Assembly (NCBI GenBank): GCA_965221775.1 | Contig: CBDCSU010000006.1 | Coordinates: 1,440,001-1,504,000, forward strand | Source of the DNA: Candidatus Latescibacterota bacterium | GTDB taxonomy: Bacteria; Latescibacterota; UBA2968; UBA8231 | Direction of reading: 5' to 3' | DNA length: 64,000 nucleotides | Part shown: positions 1 through 62,270 of the stretch, in pieces | Numbering within the stretch: the stretch's first letter is position 1 | Layout of the letters: every line of letters starts with the position of its first letter | The notes under the pieces: generated by a model | The model's input: only the letters and a program-made list of their open reading frames with translations | The model's database searches: none | What the model was told of the DNA's origin: nothing | Program-made: the position numbers and the translations under genes

Positions 1-61
1 GGCGGATGCGGCGGAACCGTCGCAGGCGCAGGCGGGTGATCGGATCGAGGCGCGGGATCAT
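1..61 (-). CDS. 5' end of second ABC peptide transporter permease (YejE-like), truncated by window edge
   Basis: ATGA overlap with the stop of the upstream permease; reads MIPRLDPITRLRLRRFRRIR, a basic N-terminus typical of YejE/OppC permeases. Confidence 0.6.
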   Translation of the reverse strand, partial: MIPRLDPITRLRLRRFRRIR

Positions 62-1113
62 TCGCCGAACCGCACGCGCGGGTCGACCCAGGCCACGCAC
101 AGGTCGCTGAGCAGGTTGCCCACGAGGAGCAGGACGGAGGAGATGAAGATGTAGCCCATGACCACAGGGTAGTCCCGCGCCGTGATGGCCTCGAAGAACA
201 GCAGGCCCATGCCGGGGATCCCGAAGACGCGCTCGATGAGCAGGGAACCGGCGAGGATGAGGGAGATGTTGTTGCCGAAGCTGGTGGCGATGGGGATGAG
301 CGAGTTGCGCAGGGCGTGGACGAAGACCGAGCGCCTCCAGGTCATGCCCTTGGCGAGAGCGGTCTTGACGTAGTCGGCGCCCATGTTCTCGAGCAGGCTG
401 TTCTTCATGAGGATGGTCATGAAGGCGAAGAGGCTGATGGCGAAGCAGAGGACGGGCAGGGCCGTGTGGTGCAGGCGGTCTAGGATCTTGCCGGAGAAGC
501 TCAGGTCGGCGAAGCCCTGGCTCTCGAACCCGGCCAGGGGAAACCAGTCCCGCTGCACGGCGAAGAGGGCCAGCAGCACGGCCCCCAGGGCGTACCCCGG
601 GATGGCGTACCCGAGGAAGATGACGAAGGAGGTGAGGTTGTCGAAGTGACTCTTGTGGCGCAGGGCCTTGAGGATGCCGAGGGGGATGCAGATCGAATAG
701 GTCAGGAGGAAGGCGATGCCGCCGAAATAGATGGAGACGGGCATGCGGCTGACGATGAGGTCCTCCACCGGCATGGTGTAGCGGAAGGAATCCCCCAGGT
801 CGAGGGTGGCCAGGTTCGCCAGGTAGAGGCCGTAGCGCACCAGCAGGGGACGGTCGAAGCCGTAGTACCGCTGCAGGCTCTCCAGGTCGGCCTGGGGAAT
901 CTCGATGGAGGAGAGGCGCCCGCCGCCCGCGGCTCCGGCCTCTCCCGCCGGGTCGGCCCCGGCGATGCGCATCCGCATCTGATCGATGGGACCGCCGGGC
1001 ACGAACTGGCACAGGAGGAAGACCAGGAAGGTGATGCCCAGCAGGGTGGGCAGGATCAGGAGCAGGCGCCGGAGGACGTACTGGCGCAGGGCGTGGGCGC
1101 GCGATACGGGCAT
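58..1113 (-). CDS. yejB: ABC oligopeptide/microcin C transporter permease (YejB/OppB family)
   Basis: RRLLLILPTLLGI..VPGGP N-terminus, EAA loop DYVKTALAKG, C-terminal RDYPVV..DPRV. Confidence 0.8.
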   Translation of the reverse strand: MPVSRAHALRQYVLRRLLLILPTLLGITFLVFLLCQFVPGGPIDQMRMRIAGADPAGEAGAAGGGRLSSIEIPQADLESLQRYYGFDRPLLVRYGLYLANLATLDLGDSFRYTMPVEDLIVSRMPVSIYFGGIAFLLTYSICIPLGILKALRHKSHFDNLTSFVIFLGYAIPGYALGAVLLALFAVQRDWFPLAGFESQGFADLSFSGKILDRLHHTALPVLCFAISLFAFMTILMKNSLLENMGADYVKTALAKGMTWRRSVFVHALRNSLIPIATSFGNNISLILAGSLLIERVFGIPGMGLLFFEAITARDYPVVMGYIFISSVLLLVGNLLSDLCVAWVDPRVRFGE

Positions 1114-1123
1114 TTCCGCGACG

Positions 1124-2137
1124 CTACTGGCCCAGGGCTTCAGCCCTTTCGTACGCGGTCTCGCTCTCCTGGATGCGGGACCTCAAGGCGTAGATGCGGC
1201 CCAGCTCGCGCCACACCGCGGCATTCTCCGGCAGCTCGACGGAAAGCCGCTCCAGCAGGGGCAGGGCGAGGTCCAGCTCCTCCAGGGCCAGGTAGGTGAC
1301 GGCGAGGTTGAAGCGGGCATCGGCGTTGCCGTCGTCGAGTGCCACGGCGCGCTCGAAGTGTCCGCGGGCGACGGCGAACTCCTCGCCGGCCCAGTGCAGG
1401 TTGCCCAGGGTGAAGTGGCAATCGAAGCAGTCCGGGTTGATGGCCAGGGCGCGCTGCACCAGCTCCCCCGCCTCGGCCGGGCGGTCCTGGTCCATGTGGA
1501 CCATGGCCAGGTGCACGAGGGCGCCCTGGTGCTCGCCGTGCTTGAGCACCGCCTCGAAGCAGCGGGCCGCCTCGTCGTAGCTCTGCCGGCTGAGGTACAG
1601 GGTGCCCAGCATGCGGTACGTCGACGTGTCGTCGGGCGCCTGGGAGACGACGTGCTCGAAGCCGCTGACGGCGCCGTCCAGATCGCCGAGCTGATAGTCG
1701 ACGACGGCGAGGTTGCGCCAGGCCATCAGCTCATCGGGCAGCACCCGCACGGCGAGGGCGAAGTGGCCGCGCGCGGCCTCCAGATCGGGAGTTGCGCCGC
1801 CGGCGACGGCAACCCCCTCGTTGTAGATCCGCGACCCGTAGCGCCGCCTCTCGTCGGCGATCTGCTCGTCGAACTTGCCCCCCAGCTCCTGGGCCCGGTC
1901 GAAGGCGTCGGCCATGGCCGGGTAGTCGCCCAGCAGGCCGCAGACCCTTCCGAGGTGGAAGAACCCCTCGGCGTTGCCGGGCTTCTCGGCCACGGCGAGC
2001 TCGAGCTGCTCCCGGGCCTTGTCGTACTGCTCCTGCTGGATGTAGAGCTTGCCGGCCGTGAGCGAGCTCTGGCACCCCGTCAGGGCGGGAAGGCAGGCGA
2101 GCAGGGCGGCGGCGCACAGGGCGAGGGAGGATCGCAT
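1124..2137 (-). CDS. TPR-repeat lipoprotein
   Basis: Signal peptide with lipobox LTGC; repeated TPR helices (FHLGRV, WRNLAVV, RFNLAVTY). Confidence 0.8.
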   Translation of the reverse strand: MRSSLALCAAALLACLPALTGCQSSLTAGKLYIQQEQYDKAREQLELAVAEKPGNAEGFFHLGRVCGLLGDYPAMADAFDRAQELGGKFDEQIADERRRYGSRIYNEGVAVAGGATPDLEAARGHFALAVRVLPDELMAWRNLAVVDYQLGDLDGAVSGFEHVVSQAPDDTSTYRMLGTLYLSRQSYDEAARCFEAVLKHGEHQGALVHLAMVHMDQDRPAEAGELVQRALAINPDCFDCHFTLGNLHWAGEEFAVARGHFERAVALDDGNADARFNLAVTYLALEELDLALPLLERLSVELPENAAVWRELGRIYALRSRIQESETAYERAEALGQ

Positions 2138-2150
2138 GGGAAGCCTCTTG

Positions 2151-3074
2151 TCAGACGAAGGTGAGCCAGCCGTGGCGGTCCTCCACCTCGGCGTTGATGG
2201 TCTGGAAGAACAAGGTCTGCAGGCGCTCGGTGACCGGACCCCGGCGGCCCGAGCCGATGGGGATCCTGTCGATGGCGCGCACCGGGGAGATCTCCGCCGC
2301 CGTCCCCGTGAAGAACACCTCGTCGGCGATATAGAGGAGCTCGCGCGGGATGGCGCCGGACTCGACCTCCATGCCCAGGTCCCGGGCCAGGGTGATGGCC
2401 GAGTGCCGGGTGATGCCGGGCAGGATCGAGTGGTGGGACGCGGGGGTGTGGATCGTGCCGTCCTTGACGAGGAAGACGTTCTCGCCGCTGCCCTCGCTCA
2501 CCAGGCCGTCGGGGCCGAGGACGATGCCCTCGTCGTAGCCGTTGGCACTGGCCTCCATGCGAACGAGCTGGGAATTGAGGTAGTTCCCCCCGGCCTTGGC
2601 CAGGTTCGGCATGGTGTTGGGCGCCGAGCGGTTCCACGACGACGTGCACACCGAGACGCCCTGCTCCAGGGCCTCCTCGCCGAGGTACTCCCCCCATTCC
2701 CAGACGGCGATGACCGTGTCCACCGGGCAGGGCAGGGGATCGACGCCGAGGGAACCGTAGCCGCGGAAGGCGATGGGCCGGATGTAGCAGGCCTCGAGCC
2801 GGTTGACCCGGATCGTCTCCAGGATCGCCTCGGCGACCTGGCCGCGGTCGAAGGGGATCTCCATGCGGTAGATCCTGGCCGAATCGAAGAGCCGGGTCAC
2901 GTGGTCCTGCAGGCGGAAGACCGCCGGCCCCTTCTTCGTGGCATAGCAGCGGATCCCCTCGAAGACGGAGGAGCCGTAATGCACCACGTGGGAGAGGACG
3001 TGGGTGCGGGCCTCGTCCCAGGGCACGAACTGGCCGTTGAACCAGATCTTCTCGGATTTCGGCATGGGGGGCAT
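2151..3074 (-). CDS. ilvE: branched-chain amino acid aminotransferase
   Basis: [40 protein letters not shown] motifs. Confidence 0.95.
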
Positions 3075-3110
3075 GAAAGGGCTCCTGCACGGCGCGTTGG
3101 GCGCCGCCGG

Positions 3111-5015
3111 TCAGAACGAACGGGTGAGGGTGAGGTTCATCCTGTCGAAGGTGCCGCTGCGCTGCCGCGAGCGGCTGAAGGACGAGGTCAGACCGGTCTG
3201 TCCGGCCGGCTGGTAGTTGAGGTTGAGCCTCAAGGTCTCGTGGGGGTGGCGGGCGACGCGATCCCGTTCGACCTCGTCGCGTCCGTAGAGGACTCGCCAC
3301 TGGCGCCGAAGCCGGACCGAGTAGCTCATGGATATGGAGGCACCTTCGGCCGGGCGATAGCTCATGTTGAAGTTCGCCGAGTGGTCGCTGTTCTCCCCCT
3401 CGACGATCTGGGCGTCCTCCTCCGTCAACAGCGTGCCGGAATCATCGGCCTTGTAGGAGTAGCTGGTGCTGAGGCTCAGGGAATTGAGCAGGGACCGCTG
3501 GACCTTGTGAGTCATGCCCCAACTGCGGTGGATTTCGCTGCGCCGGTCGACGGCGTCGGGGCTCAACTGGCGATCGAAGTCGAAGATAGTGCGCCGTGCG
3601 GATATTTGAAAGGTGTGGCTCACTTGCAGCTCGTGGCGTTCGTAGTTCGTGCCCATGGAGAGCCGGATATTGAGGTTGCGCTGGTTGTCGCCGGCCCTGG
3701 AAGCGTCGAGGTTGACCCGGCGAGAGAGGTTGGATGACAGGGAACTGTTGTAGCGCAGACCGCTCGGGCGCGCCCCTCGAAGTGAGAGAGAGAGGTTGCG
3801 GTTGAAGAGGTCCCGGTCCTGGTGAGGGGCGCCCGGGTTGTCGGAACGGTTCATGCGAGTCGATGCGGAGAGGTTGATCGTGTGCTCCTTGTCCAGCTGC
3901 CAGTTCAGCGATCCACCGAGGTCCAGGTTCTGGTTCTCGCGGTCGTCCGTGGGATCCCGGAAGGCGGCCCCGCTGGAGAGAGTCACCGGCAGGCGCCGCT
4001 CGTCGTTGGTCGACCAGCCCAGCTTCAGGCTGCCCACGAGGGTTTCGCTCAGCCGGCCGCTGGCGTTGCCGCTGAGGTCCCACTTCTCGTTCTTGCGGTC
4101 CCTCGCATAGAAGCGGTTCCCCACGTCTTCCTCGGCATTGGCGGTGTTGGTGTTCAGTCCCTTCGACCAGCTCTGGTTCCCCCTCATGTCGAAGCCGAAG
4201 AGCTTGAAGGACAGAGAGGAGGACAGGCTGGTGTTGCGGCGCTCGGACAGCTCCGCCGCCACGGAGGCCTTCGAGCCGTCGAAGACGGGACGGGAGACGC
4301 CGGCCTGGGAACGGCTCTCACCCAGGGAAAAACCGGTGCGCACATCTCCTGGGAGGGTGTAGCCAGCGCTCATGCGCAGGCTCTCGCTGCGGCTCTTGTT
4401 GATCTCGAGGGTGTTGTCCGTCTTGCTCAGGGAGAGGTTCGTGGTGAGCTTGCGGCCCCCCACCTCGAAGGCCGGCGACGTATTCATCGAACCCGTGTAC
4501 TGGAGCCCCGACTCCTCGATGAGGCTGTCCGGATTCACCGGACTCGCGCGCCGGGCCGAGATCACCCCCGGAACGACGTTGAAGCGCAGGTTGCGGAAGA
4601 CCCCTTCACTCCCGGCCAGGGGCTGGTAGCCGAAACGGAACCCGAAGGACTGGCTGCGCGTGCGCTGGCGCTGCAGACCGGCGTTCCGGCTCCGCATGCT
4701 GGCGTTGACTCCGATGGAGGCCCTGGGGCCGAGGATCGGATAGGTCACGGAGGTGCGGATACCGGCCGACTCCTGCCAGACGTGGCCGCGGCGGTCGAGC
4801 TGCGAGGTCAACGACGCCGAGGCGTTCATGCTCAGTTGGGCGGTGGTATCGCCCGCCGCCGCCAGGGTCACGGGGGTCGAGAAGCGCCATCCGGGAAAGG
4901 TCGGCGTCCACACCATTCGGTCCCTTGTCCCGCTGAATCTCAGGGAATAGCTCTGGCCCCAGCCCTCCGGGGGCCCGGTCACCACGACGAGGACGGCGAT
5001 CAGGAGGGGTCTCAC
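3111..5015 (-). CDS. hypothetical secreted / outer-membrane beta-barrel protein
   Basis: GTG start overlapping the rsmA stop (GTGA); signal-peptide-like start; Ser/Thr/Arg-rich alternating strands; C-terminal Phe (LTLTRSF). Confidence 0.65.
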   Translation of the reverse strand: MRPLLIAVLVVVTGPPEGWGQSYSLRFSGTRDRMVWTPTFPGWRFSTPVTLAAAGDTTAQLSMNASASLTSQLDRRGHVWQESAGIRTSVTYPILGPRASIGVNASMRSRNAGLQRQRTRSQSFGFRFGYQPLAGSEGVFRNLRFNVVPGVISARRASPVNPDSLIEESGLQYTGSMNTSPAFEVGGRKLTTNLSLSKTDNTLEINKSRSESLRMSAGYTLPGDVRTGFSLGESRSQAGVSRPVFDGSKASVAAELSERRNTSLSSSLSFKLFGFDMRGNQSWSKGLNTNTANAEEDVGNRFYARDRKNEKWDLSGNASGRLSETLVGSLKLGWSTNDERRLPVTLSSGAAFRDPTDDRENQNLDLGGSLNWQLDKEHTINLSASTRMNRSDNPGAPHQDRDLFNRNLSLSLRGARPSGLRYNSSLSSNLSRRVNLDASRAGDNQRNLNIRLSMGTNYERHELQVSHTFQISARRTIFDFDRQLSPDAVDRRSEIHRSWGMTHKVQRSLLNSLSLSTSYSYKADDSGTLLTEEDAQIVEGENSDHSANFNMSYRPAEGASISMSYSVRLRRQWRVLYGRDEVERDRVARHPHETLRLNLNYQPAGQTGLTSSFSRSRQRSGTFDRMNLTLTRSF

Positions 5016-56565: not shown

Positions 56566-59115
56566 TCAACCCCCATCCCCACTTCGGAACCGGTGCCGCC
56601 GCAGGGCCAGGGCCGCCCCCGCCAGGACGACAGCGGCGCTGGCGGCGCCGGCGGCGCGGGCCCGGGCCACGGGCGGGGAGCGGTAACGCAGCTCCACCAT
56701 GTGCTCGCCCGCCGGCACGGGGACCGCCTTCCAGACGTAGTCGGCGCGCAACAGGGGGGCGGGCCGGCCGTCGACGAGGGCGCGCCAGTGGGGGTGGTAG
56801 TTGTCGCCGATCACCAGCAGGCGGGGCCCGCCGGCGGACAGGTTGAGACGCACCACGCCCTCGCGGTAGTCGTAGAACTCCTCGGTCACGCGATCGCCGC
56901 CCAGATCGGCGTCCGGGCCGGGCAGGTCGATGGGCGGCGGCTCCTCCAGCAATACGGTGCGGCGCAGGTCGTAGCGCCCCTCGCGCAGGGCGGTGAGGAC
57001 CTCCGCCTCGCCGGGCAGGACCTCGGCGTGGGGCGCCAGGTGGAACCACGGCAACGCCGTCCGGTTGGCGTAGAGGCGCAGCTCGCGCCCCGCGAATACC
57101 TCGGGGAAGCCCTCGGCCCGCAGCTCGACGGAGCGCGGCGTGACGAGGAAGCGGGCGCCCATGAGATCGAGGATCGGGCGCGCGGCGCCGAGGATCTGGC
57201 CGTCGGTCCAGCGCACGTCGCGGCCCTCGGCGTGGCGGGCGCGCAGCACGCTCTCCACGGGCTCCAGCTCTCTCAGCAGGCGGTCGTAGCGGCGCAGGGT
57301 GAAGTTGGCGAAGCCGGTGGCCACGTCGGCGCCGTCGAGGTGGTAGCGCGCGTCCTTGAGGAAGCCGTGGCCCGGCACGGGGAAGAGGCGGAAGCGGCCG
57401 GGCTGCCGCTCGAGGAAGGCGCGCACGTCGGGGTTGGCCTGGCGGTAGTCGGCGTAGTCATCCGGGTCTTCGTACTTGAGGAAGAGGCGGTCGATGCGCC
57501 AGGTGTCGGCCACGGTGAGGGCGGCCAGGCCGAGGACGAGGAGGCCGGCGCCGACGCGGTTGCGCAGATGCAGCAGCAGCAGGGCGGTGCCGGCGGCGCA
57601 CACGCCGGCGCCGATGAGGCCCCCGCGGGCGAGCCAGGGGGCGGCGGCGGTCATGGCGCGGCGGCGGAACTCCGGGGCGTCGGACCAGAGGAGGGCGGTC
57701 CATGCCTCGGTGACCAGGCGCGGCGCGAGAGCGATGACGAGGCAGAGGCCGGTGAGGACGGCGCCAGCGACGAGGATGCGGCGCGAGAGGACGGGCGCGT
57801 CGCCGGCGGGGCGCAGGACGCGGCTGAGGCCGAGGGCGGCGAGGGCGACGGCGGGAAAGGCGAAGAGGAAGGCGGCCATGCCGATGGTGCGCAGCTCCTT
57901 GCCGCCGGGCAGGAGGTGGTAGGCGACATAGTGGACGGGGGTGTGGCCGCCGAGGGTGAAGGCGGCGGCGGCGGCGAAGAGGAGGCCGAGGAAGAGCACG
58001 AGGGGGCTGGCGCGGGCGCCGGGGACCGCGGCGAGGGCGAGGAGGAGGACGAGGATGCCGAAGTACTCGGAGTTGAGCTTCATGGGGTTGCGGCCCCAGT
58101 AGCGGTTCCGCTTGTCGGTGGGGTCGTCGAAGCCGCCGAACTCCGGCACGACGAGGGAGGCGATCTCCTCCGGGTGGAGGGACCAGCTGCGGGCGTGGGC
58201 GAGTTGCTCCCCGGGCGTGCGGCCGGTGCCGTCGTGGACGGCGGCGCGCTTGGACTCGGTCTTGACGTGCAGGTAGGGCGGGTAGACGCCTTCGGCGGCG
58301 AGGCCGAGACCGAGGGCGGCGGCGGCGGCGAAGAGGCCGGCGCGCTCCGCCAGGCGGGGGAAGGTCAGTCCCCGCAGGCGCAGGTGGACGAGCTTATAGA
58401 TGGTATAGGCGCCGGTGCCCAGGAGGGCGTACTGCATCATCTGCAAGTGGGGGGTGAAGATGCCGATGGCGATGAGGACGGGGAGGGCGGCCCACGAGCC
58501 GAGGGCCTGCCGGCCGCCGTCCATGCCGCGCTCGACGCAGAGGAGGAGGAAGGGGAAGAGGGCGATGACCGACATCTTGGCGTAGTGGCCGGCGAACGGG
58601 AAGCTGAGGAAGGTGGGCGCCGAGAGGAAGGCGAGGCCGCCCCAGAGGGCGGCCCAGCGATGGACGCCGACCTGCCGCAGGTAGAGGAACATGCCGTAGC
58701 CGGCGGCGAAGACGACGAGGATGTAGCGCCAGCCGACGGTGCGCTGGTGGGTGGTGAACAGCTCGATGAGGTAGGTGGGGAAGAACTTGTGGCGGATCTC
58801 CTCGGAGACGGGGTAGCCGCCCATGATGGGCGACCAGGCCGGGGGCACGAGGTCGCGCAGCTTCTCCGCCACCGGCGCCTTGCCGCGGTGGAAGTCGAGC
58901 CCCACGTCGTGGCCGAAGATGATCTTGCCGCTGAGAGGGAACTCCCAGAAGTAGACGAGGGCCACCAGCGCGAAGAGGGCGGGGGCGAACCAGGGGCGGG
59001 AGATGTACCGCCGGAAGGCGGGGGCGGGGGGGGCTTCAGGCGAGGCGGGGGCCTCGGCCTTCGGCCGGGGGTCCGCCTTGCGGCGTTGGTCGCGCCTGCG
59101 GTCCTGCTTGCCCAT
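56566..59115 (-). CDS. YfhO family polytopic membrane protein (GT-C-like)
   Basis: Many TMs, WSPIMGGYP, C-terminal YHPHWRALVDG..VPAGEHMVELRY. Confidence 0.82.
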   Translation of the reverse strand: MGKQDRRRDQRRKADPRPKAEAPASPEAPPAPAFRRYISRPWFAPALFALVALVYFWEFPLSGKIIFGHDVGLDFHRGKAPVAEKLRDLVPPAWSPIMGGYPVSEEIRHKFFPTYLIELFTTHQRTVGWRYILVVFAAGYGMFLYLRQVGVHRWAALWGGLAFLSAPTFLSFPFAGHYAKMSVIALFPFLLLCVERGMDGGRQALGSWAALPVLIAIGIFTPHLQMMQYALLGTGAYTIYKLVHLRLRGLTFPRLAERAGLFAAAAALGLGLAAEGVYPPYLHVKTESKRAAVHDGTGRTPGEQLAHARSWSLHPEEIASLVVPEFGGFDDPTDKRNRYWGRNPMKLNSEYFGILVLLLALAAVPGARASPLVLFLGLLFAAAAAFTLGGHTPVHYVAYHLLPGGKELRTIGMAAFLFAFPAVALAALGLSRVLRPAGDAPVLSRRILVAGAVLTGLCLVIALAPRLVTEAWTALLWSDAPEFRRRAMTAAAPWLARGGLIGAGVCAAGTALLLLHLRNRVGAGLLVLGLAALTVADTWRIDRLFLKYEDPDDYADYRQANPDVRAFLERQPGRFRLFPVPGHGFLKDARYHLDGADVATGFANFTLRRYDRLLRELEPVESVLRARHAEGRDVRWTDGQILGAARPILDLMGARFLVTPRSVELRAEGFPEVFAGRELRLYANRTALPWFHLAPHAEVLPGEAEVLTALREGRYDLRRTVLLEEPPPIDLPGPDADLGGDRVTEEFYDYREGVVRLNLSAGGPRLLVIGDNYHPHWRALVDGRPAPLLRADYVWKAVPVPAGEHMVELRYRSPPVARARAAGAASAAVVLAGAALALRRHRFRSGDGG

Positions 59116-59222
59116 GGTGTGGCCTGTTCCAGTCGGGGGGCGGCCCGGGAGACGCGGGAACTACTGTATTGGCAGGGCGGCCAGAGGGCCCGGGTGGTTC
59201 CCGGAGGCGCCGGAACCTGGCC

Positions 59223-59426
59223 TCATGGGGCGGCGGGGTCGTCCTCCACATCCGGGAACGGTGGGTTCACCCCCTGCCGCCGCGCCCAAGCGTTGGCCTC
59301 CCGGCAGGCCTTCAGCCGGCCCTCCTCAAAGCCCTTCTCAAGGCCTTCCTGGCGGCCTTCCTGGCGCGCCTTTTCGTGCTGGCGCGCCAGCCGGTCCTTC
59401 ATCCATTGCGTCATGACCCCGGTCAT
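59223..59426 (-). CDS. small coiled-coil protein, copy C (67 aa)
   Basis: AGGAG 5 nt before ATG; MTGVMTQWMKDRLARQ..EEGRLKACREANAWARRQG. Confidence 0.6.
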   Translation of the reverse strand: MTGVMTQWMKDRLARQHEKARQEGRQEGLEKGFEEGRLKACREANAWARRQGVNPPFPDVEDDPAAP

Positions 59427-59530
59427 GTCCACTCCTGAAGGATGGCAGACGGCTGCTCAGAAAGCTCCATGGTCGATGATACTCCCGGGGCTTCCTTCCC
59501 GGGGCGGTCCCGAAGCGCCGGAACATGGCC

Positions 59531-59746
59531 TCATGGGGCGGCGGGGTCGTCCTCCACATCCGGGAACGGTGGGTTCACCCCCTGCCGCCGCGCCCAGGCG
59601 TTGGCCTCCCGGCAGGCCTTCAGCCGGCCCTCCTCAAGGCCCTTCTCAAGGCCTTCCTGGCGGCCCTCCTCAAGGCCTTCCTGGCGCGCCTCTTCGTGCT
59701 GGCGCGCCAGCCGGTCCTTCATCCACTGAGTCATGACCCCGGTCAT
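59531..59746 (-). CDS. small coiled-coil protein, copy B (71 aa)
   Basis: AAGGAG 5 nt before ATG; intact frame near-identical to copies A and C. Confidence 0.6.
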   Translation of the reverse strand: MTGVMTQWMKDRLARQHEEARQEGLEEGRQEGLEKGLEEGRLKACREANAWARRQGVNPPFPDVEDDPAAP

Positions 59747-59810
59747 GTCCACTCCTTGGACCCGCTTGTCCTACAGATGATACTCCCGGGCCGCGCGAGA
59801 TACCGCGCTG

Positions 59811-60299
59811 CTACCGGCTGGCGGCAGGGTCGTCCTCCACATCCGGGAACGGTGGGTTCAGCCCCTGCTTCCTCGCCCAAGCGTTGGCCTCCCTGCAGGC
59901 CTTCAGCCGGCCCTCTTCGCGACCCTCTTCGCGGCCCTCTTCGCGACCCTCTTCGCGGCCCTCTTCGCGACCCTCCTCACGGCCTTCCCGCAGGGCCTGC
60001 TGCCGCGCCTCTTCGTGCTGGCGCGCCAGCCGGTCCTTCATCCACTGAGTCATTACGCCGGTCATGTCCACTCCTTGGAGGATGGCAAAAGGTATGCAGA
60101 CGGCTGCGATGACGACCTCCCCCAGACCTCGCATGATACCCAGAGAGGTATCAACAAGACCCTTCCCCCCAGTGACCTCCGACCAAACTACAAGACCAGA
60201 CCCGTAGAGGGCGATGGCCAGGAATCCGGTCACGAACCAGACCCGCTTGTCCTCGACGATCGACCATATCCCGACTCTTGCCCCGGATTCCGGCTCCAT
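59811..60299 (-). CDS. hypothetical two-TM protein with EEGR-repeat C-terminal tail (copy A), with internal RBS/ATG at 60065
   Basis: TMs VWFVTGFLAIALYGSGLVVW and VVIAAVCIPFAIL; (EEGR)6 tail; GGAG RBS. Confidence 0.7.
   Translation of the reverse strand: MEPESGARVGIWSIVEDKRVWFVTGFLAIALYGSGLVVWSEVTGGKGLVDTSLGIMRGLGEVVIAAVCIPFAILQGVDMTGVMTQWMKDRLARQHEEARQQALREGREEGREEGREEGREEGREEGREEGRLKACREANAWARKQGLNPPFPDVEDDPAASR
59911..59982 (-). repeat. 6 x 12-nt tandem repeat encoding REEG
   Basis: ccctcttcgcg(a/g) x5 plus one variant unit. Confidence 0.95.
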
Positions 60300-60357
60300 T
60301 CAGAAGCTCCATGGTCGATGATACTCCCGGGGCTTCCTGCCCGCAATGAATGACCGC

Positions 60358-60951
60358 TTACAGGGTGCCCTTGGTGGAGGGCACGCCGGAGACGCGGTCG
60401 GAGCGCAGGGTGGCCATGTCGAGGGCGCGGCCCAGGGCCTTGAAGATCGCCTCGATGCCGTGGTGGTCGTCGGCGCCGCGGAGCAGGTCGACGTGCAGGT
60501 TCAGGCGCCCGTGGTCGGTGAAGGCGCGCAGGAACTCGGGGACGAGGGCCACGGGCAGGCCGCCCACGGAGCCGTCGCGGAAGGCGGCGTTGACGGCCAG
60601 GTAGGAGCGTCCGGAGAGGTCGACCACAGCCCGGGCGAGGGCGTCGTCCATGGGGACGTAGGCGTGGCCGAAGCGCTGGATGCCGGCCTTGTCGCCGAGA
60701 GCCTCGCCCAGGGCTTGGCCGAGGCAGATGCCGACGTCCTCGACGCTGTGGTGGGCGTCGACGTCGAGATCGCCGCGGCAGGTGAGGGTGAGGTCGAAGA
60801 GGCCGTGGCGGGTGAAGGCGTGGAGCATGTGGTCGAAGAAGCCGACGCCGGTGCTGGCCTCGCAGCGGCCGGTGCCGTCGAGGACGAGGGTGAGGTCGAT
60901 CTCGGTCTCGGAGGTGCGTCGCTCGACGCGGGCGCGGCGGGCGCCGCTCAC
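60358..60951 (-). CDS. hisB: imidazoleglycerol-phosphate dehydratase
   Basis: RTSETEI, FFDHML, DAHHSVED, HHGIEAIFKA, PSTKG. Confidence 0.96.
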   Translation of the reverse strand: MSGARRARVERRTSETEIDLTLVLDGTGRCEASTGVGFFDHMLHAFTRHGLFDLTLTCRGDLDVDAHHSVEDVGICLGQALGEALGDKAGIQRFGHAYVPMDDALARAVVDLSGRSYLAVNAAFRDGSVGGLPVALVPEFLRAFTDHGRLNLHVDLLRGADDHHGIEAIFKALGRALDMATLRSDRVSGVPSTKGTL

Positions 60952-62270
60952 GGCGAGCCCTCCCGGCTCCAGGCTTGGAGACGGACCTCGACGGCGCGGG
61001 CGTGGGCCTCGAACCCCTCGGCGCGCGCCAGGCGGGTGACGTCGGCGGCGGCGGCGCGCAGGCGCTGGGGCGTCCAGGCGACGACGCTGGTGGCCTTGAC
61101 GAAGTCGGAAAGGCCGAGGGAGGAGGAGAACCGGGCGGCGCCGTTGGTGGGCAGGACGTGGTTGGTGCCGGCGTAGTAGTCGCCCACGGGCTCGGTGGAT
61201 GCCTCGCCGAGGAAGACGGCGCCGGCGTTGCGGACGCGCTCGAGCCACTCCCAGGGCTCGGCGACGAGCAGCTCCAGGTGCTCGGGGGCGAGGCGATTCA
61301 CCAGCTCGACGCCGGTCCGAAGGTCGGGGACGACGACGACGACGCCGTAGCGCGACAGGGCGCGGTCCACGGCGTCGAGGCGCGGCAGGGCCGCCTTCTG
61401 GCGCTCCACCTCGTCGCGCACGGCGCGGGCCAAGTCGGCGGAGGGGGTGATGCAGAGGGCGGCCTCGAAGCCGGAACCGTGCTCGGCCTGGGAAAGCAGG
61501 TCGGCGGCGATGAAGGCGGGAGATGCGGTGTCGTCGGCGAGCACGGCGATCTCCGACGGGCCGGGGACCATCTCGATGCCGACGAGGCCGTAGACCTGGC
61601 GCTTGGCGGCGACGGTGTAGGGGCCGCCGGGGCCGACGATCTTGTCGACGGCGGGGACGGTGCCGGTGCCGTGAGCGAGGGCCGCCACCGCCTGGGCGCC
61701 GCCGATGGCGTAGACCTCGTCGAGGCCGAGGAAGCCGGCGGCGGCGAGCAGCCCGGGGTGGGGCAGGCCCGAGGGCAGGGGCGGGGTGACGACGCAGATC
61801 TCGTCGACGCCGGCGACCTGCGCGGGGACGGCGGCCATGAGGAGGCTGGAGATGAGCGGCGCCTCGCCGCCGGGGACGCAGATGCCGACGCGGCGCAGGG
61901 GCGTGATGCGCCGGCCGAGGACGACGCCGTCGCCATCGTCGCGGAACCAGGTGTCGGCCTTCTGGGCCTCGTGGAAGGAGCGGATGTTGGCGGCGGCGCG
62001 CTCGATGGCGCCCATGAGGGCGGGATCGGCGGCGTTCAGGGCGTCGTGCAGGGCCTTCTGCGGCACGCGGAAGCGGCCCGGCGTGAGGCGCACCCCGTCG
62101 AAGCGGACGGTGTACTCGGCGACCGCCTCGTCGCCGCGGTCGCGCACGGCGGCGACGATGGCGGCGGCGGTCCTCTCGATGTCGGCGGGGATGGCGCCGC
62201 GCCGGCCGAGGACCTCGGCGAGACGGCCCTCCAGGGGGCCGCCGGTGGTGTAGTGGACGAGGTCGAGCAT
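60948..62270 (-). CDS. hisD: histidinol dehydrogenase
   Basis: [37 protein letters not shown]. Confidence 0.96.

Follow-up and report, generated by a model that had tools for sequence, protein, structure and literature searches.

A two-helix membrane protein gene with a predicted internal start and downstream tail-only copies in a Latescibacterota bacterium

Results

Three related units between hisB and a YfhO-like gene

We analyzed a 64,000-nucleotide stretch of DNA from a Candidatus Latescibacterota bacterium of sponges (assembly GCA_965221775.1, contig CBDCSU010000006.1, positions 1,440,001 to 1,504,000), referred to below as the window, and within it three related units, A, B and C, that lie on the minus strand between hisB and a gene for a YfhO-like membrane protein. 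Gene A encodes a protein with two transmembrane (TM) helices and a long, repeat-containing tail. Directly after the second TM helix (TM2) it contains a Shine-Dalgarno (SD) sequence and an in-frame ATG, from which the tail alone could be translated. B and C encode only the tail. The sequence data support well a gene-within-gene architecture like that of the Rpn toxin-antitoxin proteins, whereas a toxin-antitoxin function is something that we only infer, by analogy. The complete chain of events that we favor, in which a hairpin toxin (A_L, the full-length product of A) would be restrained by an internally made tail (A_S), with B and C as spare tails, is a tentative reading that we put somewhat short of an even chance.

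Gene A (59811..60299, minus strand, stop included) encodes 162 amino acids and has GGAG 7 nt before its ATG. Its hydropathy profile (Kyte-Doolittle) peaks at residues 22-40 (1.68) and again at residues 55-73 (1.93), and an AlphaFold (AF2) model (mean pLDDT 84.9) has helices at residues 16-43 and 48-144. The second helix is unbroken, so TM2 continues straight into the tail; beyond it the model ends in a short, non-helical, Pro-rich segment. Residues 1-78 (60066..60299) form what we call the N-domain, with both TM helices and the conserved residues R8, W12, S13, R19 and F71. The internal SD sequence is AAGGAG (60076-60071), five bases before the ATG at 60065 (Met79), with a calculated anti-SD pairing of -7.9 kcal/mol. 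The predicted product, A_S (59811..60065, stop included), would be 84 amino acids long and identical to the tail of A. Within the tail, 12/24-nt tandem repeats (59908..59984) code for four-residue units of the type EGRE. Downstream, B is a 71-amino-acid open reading frame (ORF) starting at ATG 59746 (59531..59746, stop included), with AAGGAG at 59757-59752, and C is a 67-amino-acid ORF starting at ATG 59426 (59223..59426, stop included), with AGGAG at 59436-59432. A genome-wide search found three copies of the tail, all at this locus.

An earlier note on this DNA had described three tandem units between hisB and a YfhO gene, a 162-residue A with two TM helices and a repeat tail, and an AAGGAG-5 nt-ATG at 60065 after TM2 that opens an in-frame 84-residue tail. 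The hydropathy profile and the model helices agree with this description, the internal start is exactly where it was placed, and the units are present as described, although the 849-residue flanking protein is only YfhO-like. The note had also given B and C the same ribosome binding site and ATG, with intact frames; B has the AAGGAG-5 nt arrangement, and C has AGGAG-5 nt, one A short.

We compared the internal site with the rest of the genome (5.36 Mb, 69.8% G+C), in which the 16S rRNA ends in CCTCCT. AGGAG or GGAGG was present 4-17 nt upstream of 15.9% of first ATGs (1975 long ORFs), versus 3.9% of 14063 internal in-frame ATGs, and AAGGAG at 4-8 nt preceded 12 of those 14063. The organism thus uses SD sites, and a site like that inside A is rare. 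On their own, the open frames of B and C, about 70 codons each, carry little weight, because the DNA is 70% G+C and the opposite strand of the A-B-C stretch is also open, with ORFs of 95-195 amino acids. We rejected the plus-strand ORFs over the region as genes; they read the GC-rich repeats in antisense, and their translations are rich in Pro, Arg and Ser.

The start of A itself is unusual in having ATGGAGC twice, 13 nt apart (60299-60318, minus strand; 14 nt apart in a related genome, G006). The GGAG of the first copy serves as the SD sequence for the second, in-frame ATG, and the first copy also opens a 53-amino-acid out-of-frame ORF. In several metagenomic homologs of A the first ATG is in frame instead.

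A family of small two-TM proteins

A belongs to an unnamed family of small two-TM proteins. Its full-length homologs comprise 11 close ones, at 62-86% identity, and a large number of distant ones that are 140-200 amino acids long. Their common plan is an R-E/V-S-I-W-S motif, two TM helices, EGRx repeats and often a C-terminal W..W..RR..A..G.PF.EPPP. Five residues, R8, W12, S13 and R19 ahead of TM1 and F71 close to the end of TM2, are invariant in 15 aligned N-domains, including that of A. A profile of the N-domain (A3) made from these 15 sequences was run against 1.84 billion cluster representatives (clusters at 50% identity) and matched 101 proteins at E<=1e-3, 31 of them at E<=1e-10. The matched proteins are nearly all 110-230 amino acids long, with the domain at the N-terminus; one close homolog of A (P0007) matched at E 5.7e-15. 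The family extends over Latescibacterota, Chloroflexota and other groups, and the Atlas neighbours of A are unnamed clusters, mostly from Chloroflexota. In sequence searches with protein A, genome contigs gave one true relative (in G006) and repeat-only matches, and metagenome contigs gave repeat-only matches.

No model in Pfam, NCBIfam, PADLOC or PHROGs covers the N-domain, and a Foldseek comparison of the A model to the PDB gave no match at E<=0.001, as expected of a helical hairpin. Weak matches in the repeats led us to consider two other memberships, both rejected: Yae1_N (PF09811) scored 19.8, 23.2 and 20.2 bits against a cut-off of 27.5, and FliH models of NCBIfam scored at most 34.6 bits (cut-off 180) against cut-offs of 148.9-293 overall, in each case over the repeats only.

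At least three types of tail are found behind this one N-domain, a case of module shuffling. The C-terminal motif after the repeats is conserved even in distant members. Four family proteins (P0163, P0174, P0178 and P0181) have REERQRQ, AEAQRE/AETERER, EENARL and EIREETRARV in place of EGRx units, so what seems to be constrained is a long charged helix that can vary in length, and not Gly itself. Four others (P0122, P0127, P0139 and P0147) keep the N-domain and have a frameshifted or missing tail, with the break exactly at the post-TM2 position, so that loss does not affect the N-domain alone.

The genes next to family members vary by locus and are mostly metabolic. Some neighbours are a restriction enzyme, DNA methylases, an IS1595 transposase, a PIN-domain gene, an M78 peptidase and RadC.

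Conservation of the predicted internal start

We examined the post-TM2 position in the 101 profile matches, 12 of which could not be examined. A Met within two residues on either side was present in 67 of the remaining 89 representatives. Non-initial Met makes up 1.7% of residues in the family proteins, so that a five-residue window would hold one about 8% of the time. At the DNA level, anti-SD pairing was computed over the 21 nt upstream of the ATG. It was -6 kcal/mol or stronger in all 19 Latescibacterota genes (mean -9.7) and -8 or stronger in 14 of them, compared to a mean of -3.6 at 239 other internal ATGs of the same loci, 8.8% of which reached -8. The annotated starts of the family genes have values of -0.5 to -8.6. 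The amino acids coded upstream of the Met differ among members (EG, EV, GG, WGE, QGV) while the G-rich core of the DNA stays in place. A member from Dehalococcoidia has GAGGT-5 nt-ATG, made from Pro-Arg-Ser codons. Homologs of A with an SD-Met after TM2, which the earlier note had proposed as a check of its prediction, are therefore common.

We also resampled synonymous codons for the seven residues upstream of the Met, with one gene per lineage in 11 Latescibacterota lineages. The observed pairing was stronger than the resampled mean in all 11 (p 0.008-0.40). The Fisher statistic was 51.6; when control positions within the same genes were drawn 20,000 times, no draw reached this value. The chi-square p in the first run of the test was 4.4e-4. 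Together, the conserved Met and the synonymous bias toward SD pairing make an internal start plausible across the family.

Origin of B and C

B and C did not originate as independent small genes; they are tandem copies of the whole A unit that have lost the membrane part through deletions with different breakpoints. The upstream edges of all three units have an identical 15-mer, CCCGGGAGTATCATC (minus-strand letters), located at 60317..60331 for A, 59776..59790 before B and 59475..59489 before C, all on the minus strand. C still has 40 nt of the A upstream region (98%) and a short piece of TM2, and B has a 14-nt island from the A N-terminus. Conservation among A, B and C is high in the arms on both sides of the variable repeats. 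We also considered that the extra copies might be full-length genes in another genetic code and rejected this; the deletions are plain in the alignment.

A scan of 59050-60450 for sigma-70 promoters and terminators found none, and none were expected in shuffled sequences either, so the 15-mer, which includes TATCAT, is not supported as a promoter. The lack of sigma-70-type promoters and intrinsic terminators between the units fits their co-transcription. The expression data consisted of assembled contigs from two metatranscriptome runs of one study. One contig (59271-59608) runs from the 3' end of B through the spacer into C. Another joins 60160-60000 to 59641-59406 and so contains an A/B fusion followed by the next tail start. 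There were no contigs on the 5' end of the YfhO-like gene and 36 nt on hisB; uncovered stretches are no proof of silence and serve here as a weak contrast only. These contigs are a weak hint of transcription across the units.

In C (59424-59472) and in the tail copy of another genome, G007 (locus L008, 1509-1523), a short upstream ORF runs from the first ATG of the unit to a TGA that overlaps the tail ATG (ATGA). This overlap could couple translation, or it could be due to chance, at about one in three per copy.

Tail-only copies in other genomes

Tail-only copies were found in six genomes from four genera, with different breakpoints: the genome analyzed here (G000, with B and C), G006, G007, G083, G032 and G112. 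In five of the seven copies with DNA, SD-like pairing ahead of the ATG is at least as strong as -6 kcal/mol (B, -7.9; C, -7.0; G007, -6.0; G032, -7.9; G112, -6.7), and pairing is weaker in G083 (-4.4) and G006 (-3.9). G083, from another family of the class, has a full-length gene and then a second, broken copy, which consists of the N-terminus and TM1, about 250 nt of unrelated DNA and an intact tail ORF. G112 has an 88-amino-acid tail-only ORF. In G032, an island has two full-length copies with two and three repeat units and a tail-only copy with five. The duplicate there begins 27 nt before the ATG and thus comprises the SD sequence and the tail alone. In metagenomes, the start of an 89-amino-acid protein (P0042) coincides exactly with the post-TM2 Met of P0048, a longer relative. 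A second tail within 1.5 kb on either side of family genes was found at the G000, G006 and G083 loci and at no others.

The G032 island (L085, G032:C1:5089500-5096500, 1-4600) also contains a 336-amino-acid Rpn-like gene, a ParA-like fragment and an IS630-like transposase. The same genome has many more matches to Rpn-like and roughly 164-residue proteins at about 5.05-5.09, 5.31 and 5.40 Mb.

We counted substitutions over the 51 tail codons outside the repeats; the numbers are small. There were 7.5 synonymous and 2.5 nonsynonymous differences between A and B, 8.5 and 3.5 between A and C, 3 and 1 between B and C, and 11 and 2 between the full-length copy of G006 and the tail of G007. Between the tail copy of G006, which has no SD-ATG, and its neighbour there were 3 synonymous and 7 nonsynonymous differences. 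The tails of A and B differ at 21% of synonymous sites, and B keeps its frame, SD sequence and ATG.

The A-B-C block is accessory

The three units lie in a strain-variable block (59122..60327, minus strand) without counterpart in genome G002. In G002, whose flanking sequences are 95% identical, 43 nt separate hisB from the YfhO-like gene. In four further genomes of the genus the two genes are also close together, without the block. The block is therefore accessory, polymorphic for presence and absence. Two members of the genus, G006 and G007, carry other forms of the locus. In G006, hisB is followed by a tail copy, then by a duplicate of the 5' part of the YfhO-like gene, full-length A and YfhO. 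In G007, the order is hisB, the tail only (through a deletion between two GGAG sequences) and YfhO. The YfhO-like fragment of G006 (ATGGCCAGGCAGGACCGCAGG..., L007 1397-1445) lies between the tail copy and the full-length gene, so the tandem duplication there reached into the start of the neighbouring gene. The locus is also present in sponge metagenomes, and DNA contigs of other samples contain further joints within it. One metagenomic protein (P0001) has the exact N-domain of A followed by a B/C-type tail.

On the minus strand of the window the gene order is hisB, A, B, C and the YfhO-like gene. The upstream flank, hisB (60358..61248, minus strand), has the IGPD domain (PF00475, E 1.1e-63). 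In the ORF as listed, this domain occupies residues 133-276 and is preceded by about 130 Arg/Pro-rich residues, and the ORF overlaps the end of hisD. This long N-terminal extension is probably an artefact, with the true start much further downstream. The downstream flank (56566..59115, minus strand) encodes an 849-amino-acid YfhO-like membrane protein, for which PF09586 scored 23.3 bits, under the cut-off of 28.5.

Four-residue repeats and a link to Rpn proteins

The tails differ in length by whole repeat units. Sixteen close sequences (A, B, C, the G006 and G007 copies, and 10 of the 11 metagenomic homologs) have both of two conserved tail anchors, and in all 16 the spacing between the anchors is a multiple of four. 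The spacings are 16, 24, 28, 32, 36, 40 or 44 residues, with 44 in A, 32 in B and 28 in C.

We found another type of tail that connects the family to Rpn-named proteins. L028 is a member from another genus of the same class with the two-TM N-domain. Over 68 residues, its tail and that of L017, a 330-amino-acid ORF, are 59% identical (E 3e-17). L017 is one of a group of proteins of about 310-330 amino acids. Its homologs at 83-85% identity have the NCBI name 'Rpn family recombination-promoting nuclease/putative transposase', and the Atlas neighbours of an L017-type protein are Rpn-named clusters with DUF2887/DUF4351 (score 0.96-0.97). With a tail shared between family members and Rpn-named proteins, the link to Rpn is genealogical, beyond analogy. 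A phmmer search of the PDB with the 330-residue protein gave chance matches alone, and a profile of the tail had no match among PDB sequences.

Rpn-named proteins that are 76-94% identical to the 330-residue protein (P0220-P0339) range from 294 to 318 amino acids, almost entirely in even steps. These steps fit variation in repeat number in the nucleases too.

A itself is not a member of the Rpn family, as neither the PD-(D/E)XK nuclease nor the three-helix domain of DUF4351 type was found in it. A matched no nuclease family; TIGR01784 matched B and C only, at 15.5-16.9 bits versus 52.1 and within the repeats. The tail of A is of a different type from the Rpn C-terminal domain.

Discussion

Comparison to known systems

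RpnL and RpnS are a gene-within-gene toxin-antitoxin pair of E. coli (Zhong et al. 2023, PMC10400941). According to that paper, RpnS is translated from within the rpn gene, has a dimerising helix and carries a number of four-residue repeats that varies among strains, and a mismatch of one repeat unit abolished neutralisation. Some rpn genes have stand-alone small genes (RpnSs) downstream (ypaA/rpnESs, rpnCSs), which are lost by deletion or by fusion to the N-terminal domain. Our locus resembles RpnL/RpnS in several ways: the small C-terminal product with its internal SD and start, here predicted; the long helix near the start of that product, built of four-residue units whose number varies among close strains; and the single-gene, patchy, accessory distribution with tandem duplication. 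Some relatives of A, moreover, bear the same type of tail as Rpn-named proteins. In contrast to RpnL, the N-terminal part of A is a two-TM hairpin and not a PD-(D/E)XK nuclease, and in contrast to RpnS the tail of A is, in the AF2 model, a single long helix with a short Pro-rich end and not a three-helix domain of DUF4351 type. B and C are like the RpnSs genes in lying directly downstream of a full-length gene from which they are derived, and in their apparent loss by deletion or N-terminal fusion, as in P0001 and the RNA-library contig. They differ in that there are two copies here, both predicted ORFs, each a deletion derivative of a whole duplicated unit and three and four units off A.

Three other systems share single features with the locus. 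Phage holin/antiholin pairs such as lambda S105/S107 are made from one gene with two starts a few codons apart near the N-terminus, giving two membrane products, one of which restrains the membrane-damaging other. Gene A is likewise a small membrane-protein gene with two starts and a second product that we propose restrains the first, but its second start is after TM2 and would give a soluble tail. The N-domain had no match in PHROGs, and with hisB and the YfhO-like gene as neighbours there is no lysis cassette or phage context. The orphan C-terminal modules of CDI and Rhs systems, which consist of toxin domains and immunity genes, lie downstream of very large secreted-protein genes, have a homology arm and can recombine back. 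They too form an array of displaced C-terminal pieces downstream of a full gene, whereas the pieces here are helical tails of about 70 residues from a 162-residue membrane protein. In FliH and Yae1/Lto1, helices with GX3 repeats have a role in helix pairing; the tail of A shares with them a Gly at every fourth residue of a charged helix, and no other domain.

Proposed mechanism

We propose that gene A most likely makes two proteins, the membrane-anchored A_L and the free tail A_S of 84 residues. A_L would be inserted as a hairpin with both ends in the cytoplasm, and TM2 would continue into a long cytoplasmic helix with a variable number of EGRx units. This helix, about 70 residues with Gly at every fourth position, may mediate self-association of A_L. 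A_S, made from the internal start, would pair helix to helix with the tail of A_L and limit an activity of the hairpin that depends on assembly, most plausibly membrane damage in abortive defence. The number of four-residue units would set which tail fits which, and B and C would be spare tails with other unit numbers. We infer that the internal start is used and, from the parallel to Rpn and the pattern of effector swapping, that the tails bind each other and that A is toxic and acts in defence. A complex prediction for A and B scored 0.24 against a mark of 0.32, with controls not folded, and counts neither for nor against binding.

The earlier note had proposed this Rpn-like architecture with a two-TM effector in place of the nuclease. 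The internal SD-Met, the four-residue steps, the downstream tail-only copies and the fusions of N-domain and tail support the architecture; what does not carry over is the Rpn tail domain, since A has no DUF4351. Its suggestion that the extra tails act as dosage immunity fared less well. B and C are three and four units short of A, and a mismatch of one unit was enough to abolish neutralisation in Rpn, which weakens the reading of B and C as extra doses of antidote; the tail-only G007 and the decaying copy of G006 weigh against it as well.

Alternative explanations

Several observations speak against the proposed mechanism. The differences in repeat number between A and its downstream copies (three fewer in B, four fewer in C) are one, and the presence in G007 of a tail with no full-length gene in the whole genome is another. 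The tail copy of G006 has lost its SD sequence and first ATG and evolves near-neutrally, and the tail copy of G083 has GTAAG in place of GGAGG. The low nonsynonymous counts may go back to a time when each of the tails belonged to a full-length gene. The dead N-terminal remnant of G083 has 6 synonymous and 3 nonsynonymous changes, like the tails, and B/C-type tails occur on full-length P0001, so the substitution pattern need not show selection on tail-only genes. The Met after TM2 is absent or replaced by V, I or L in 22 of the 89 representatives, as could also happen at a purely structural hydrophobic position. The DNA-level evidence on the internal start comes from two phyla, and the lineages in the codon test share ancestry. 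The contigs from RNA libraries are from a single study and could reflect carry-over of DNA. PF14261 (DUF4351) has no match in A, B or C, and the Rpn-type tails of relatives have none either and are below the Pfam and NCBIfam cut-offs, so these tails are called Rpn-type solely through their 59% identity to Rpn-named proteins. In PADLOC-DB 2.0, A and three other family members had no match, and B had chance-level matches alone (E 0.0035 and 0.054).

In one alternative, the locus is simply decaying. A would then be an ordinary, non-toxic membrane protein, B and C would be dying remnants of tandem duplication at a site rich in repeats and prone to recombination, neither translated nor under selection, and the post-TM2 Met with its G-rich codons would be a protein motif of the membrane boundary or a programmed ribosome pause; SD-like sites within genes can slow ribosomes. 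The extra units are deletion derivatives, each with separate breakpoints, two of them are visibly degraded (the G006 copy without its SD-ATG and with an excess of nonsynonymous changes, the second G083 copy interrupted by foreign DNA and with a weakened SD), open frames are cheap at this G+C content, low nonsynonymous counts can be inherited from a full-length past, and about a quarter of the representatives are without the Met. Decay does not account for the synonymous anti-SD bias, which is found in 11 lineages, above every control draw, and also where the coded residues differ, or for a Met at one position in 75% of representatives against its low background. Nor would it be expected to leave an SD-like site and ATG in five of seven tail-only copies from four genera, a duplicated segment in G032 cut to just the SD and tail, or an intact frame, SD and ATG in B despite its synonymous divergence from A. 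We consider decay alone unlikely, although it is an explanation to be taken seriously.

B and C could also be silent DNA cassettes that recombine into A through the conserved arms and switch its repeat number or tail variant, with no need for their translation. The strong conservation of the arms on either side of the variable repeats is as expected, P0001 and the contig joining 60000 to 59641 look like products of such events, and there are further joints in DNA from other samples. Purifying-type substitutions would fit tails that are periodically moved into an expressed gene, and an Rpn N-terminal domain fused with its downstream small gene has been described (PMC10400941). A cassette store leaves the family-wide SD-Met after TM2 unexplained, and most members have no cassette nearby. 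A homology arm does not need AGGAG-5 nt-ATG spacing, yet this spacing survives in units with different breakpoints, and G007 has a cassette without an acceptor gene. We regard the cassette store as quite improbable.

Slightly less probable again is a real internal start whose free tail helps A_L, for example as a soluble subunit or by linking a partner through the C-terminal W..W..RR..G.PF.EPPP-type motif, with no toxin involved: products of genes-within-genes can be complementary as well as opposing (PMC10400941, introduction), the motif is conserved in distant members as a binding site would be, and neighbouring genes are mostly metabolic, but a housekeeping complex would not usually be present so patchily among close genomes, have an empty site or be duplicated and deleted so rapidly, there is exchange of the tail module with Rpn-named proteins, and several neighbours are restriction, methylase, PIN, IS or M78 genes.

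Implications

The literature that we searched, which did not extend to Dataset S1 of PMC10400941 with its possible unusual domain fusions, contains no description of the two-TM family or of an Rpn layout with a membrane effector. The locus points to an uncharacterised family that shares with Rpn the signature of a gene within a gene, a length code in steps of four residues and, in some members, the tail, with a membrane hairpin where the nuclease would be. Replacement of a nuclease by a hairpin matches the kind of effector swap typical of defence systems. In its boldest form, the proposal is that the two-TM family is a second, membrane-acting branch of the Rpn-type antitoxin-within-toxin principle, with a pore-forming or depolarising hairpin, specificity coded in the number of units, tails swapped with Rpn nucleases, and B and C as variant antidotes or recombination stock in an arms race with phages. 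This wider claim we think unlikely, at about one chance in four.

The family also points to a gap in annotation. Gene callers give one product per gene, and they would miss the tail product or call the tail alone, as P0042 may show. A commentary on the discovery of Rpn raised the question of whether Rpn is a unique case of dominant-negative antitoxins made by internal translation or just the tip of an iceberg (PMC10400984). With a gene of 162 codons, the generality of the antitoxin-within-toxin principle becomes testable.

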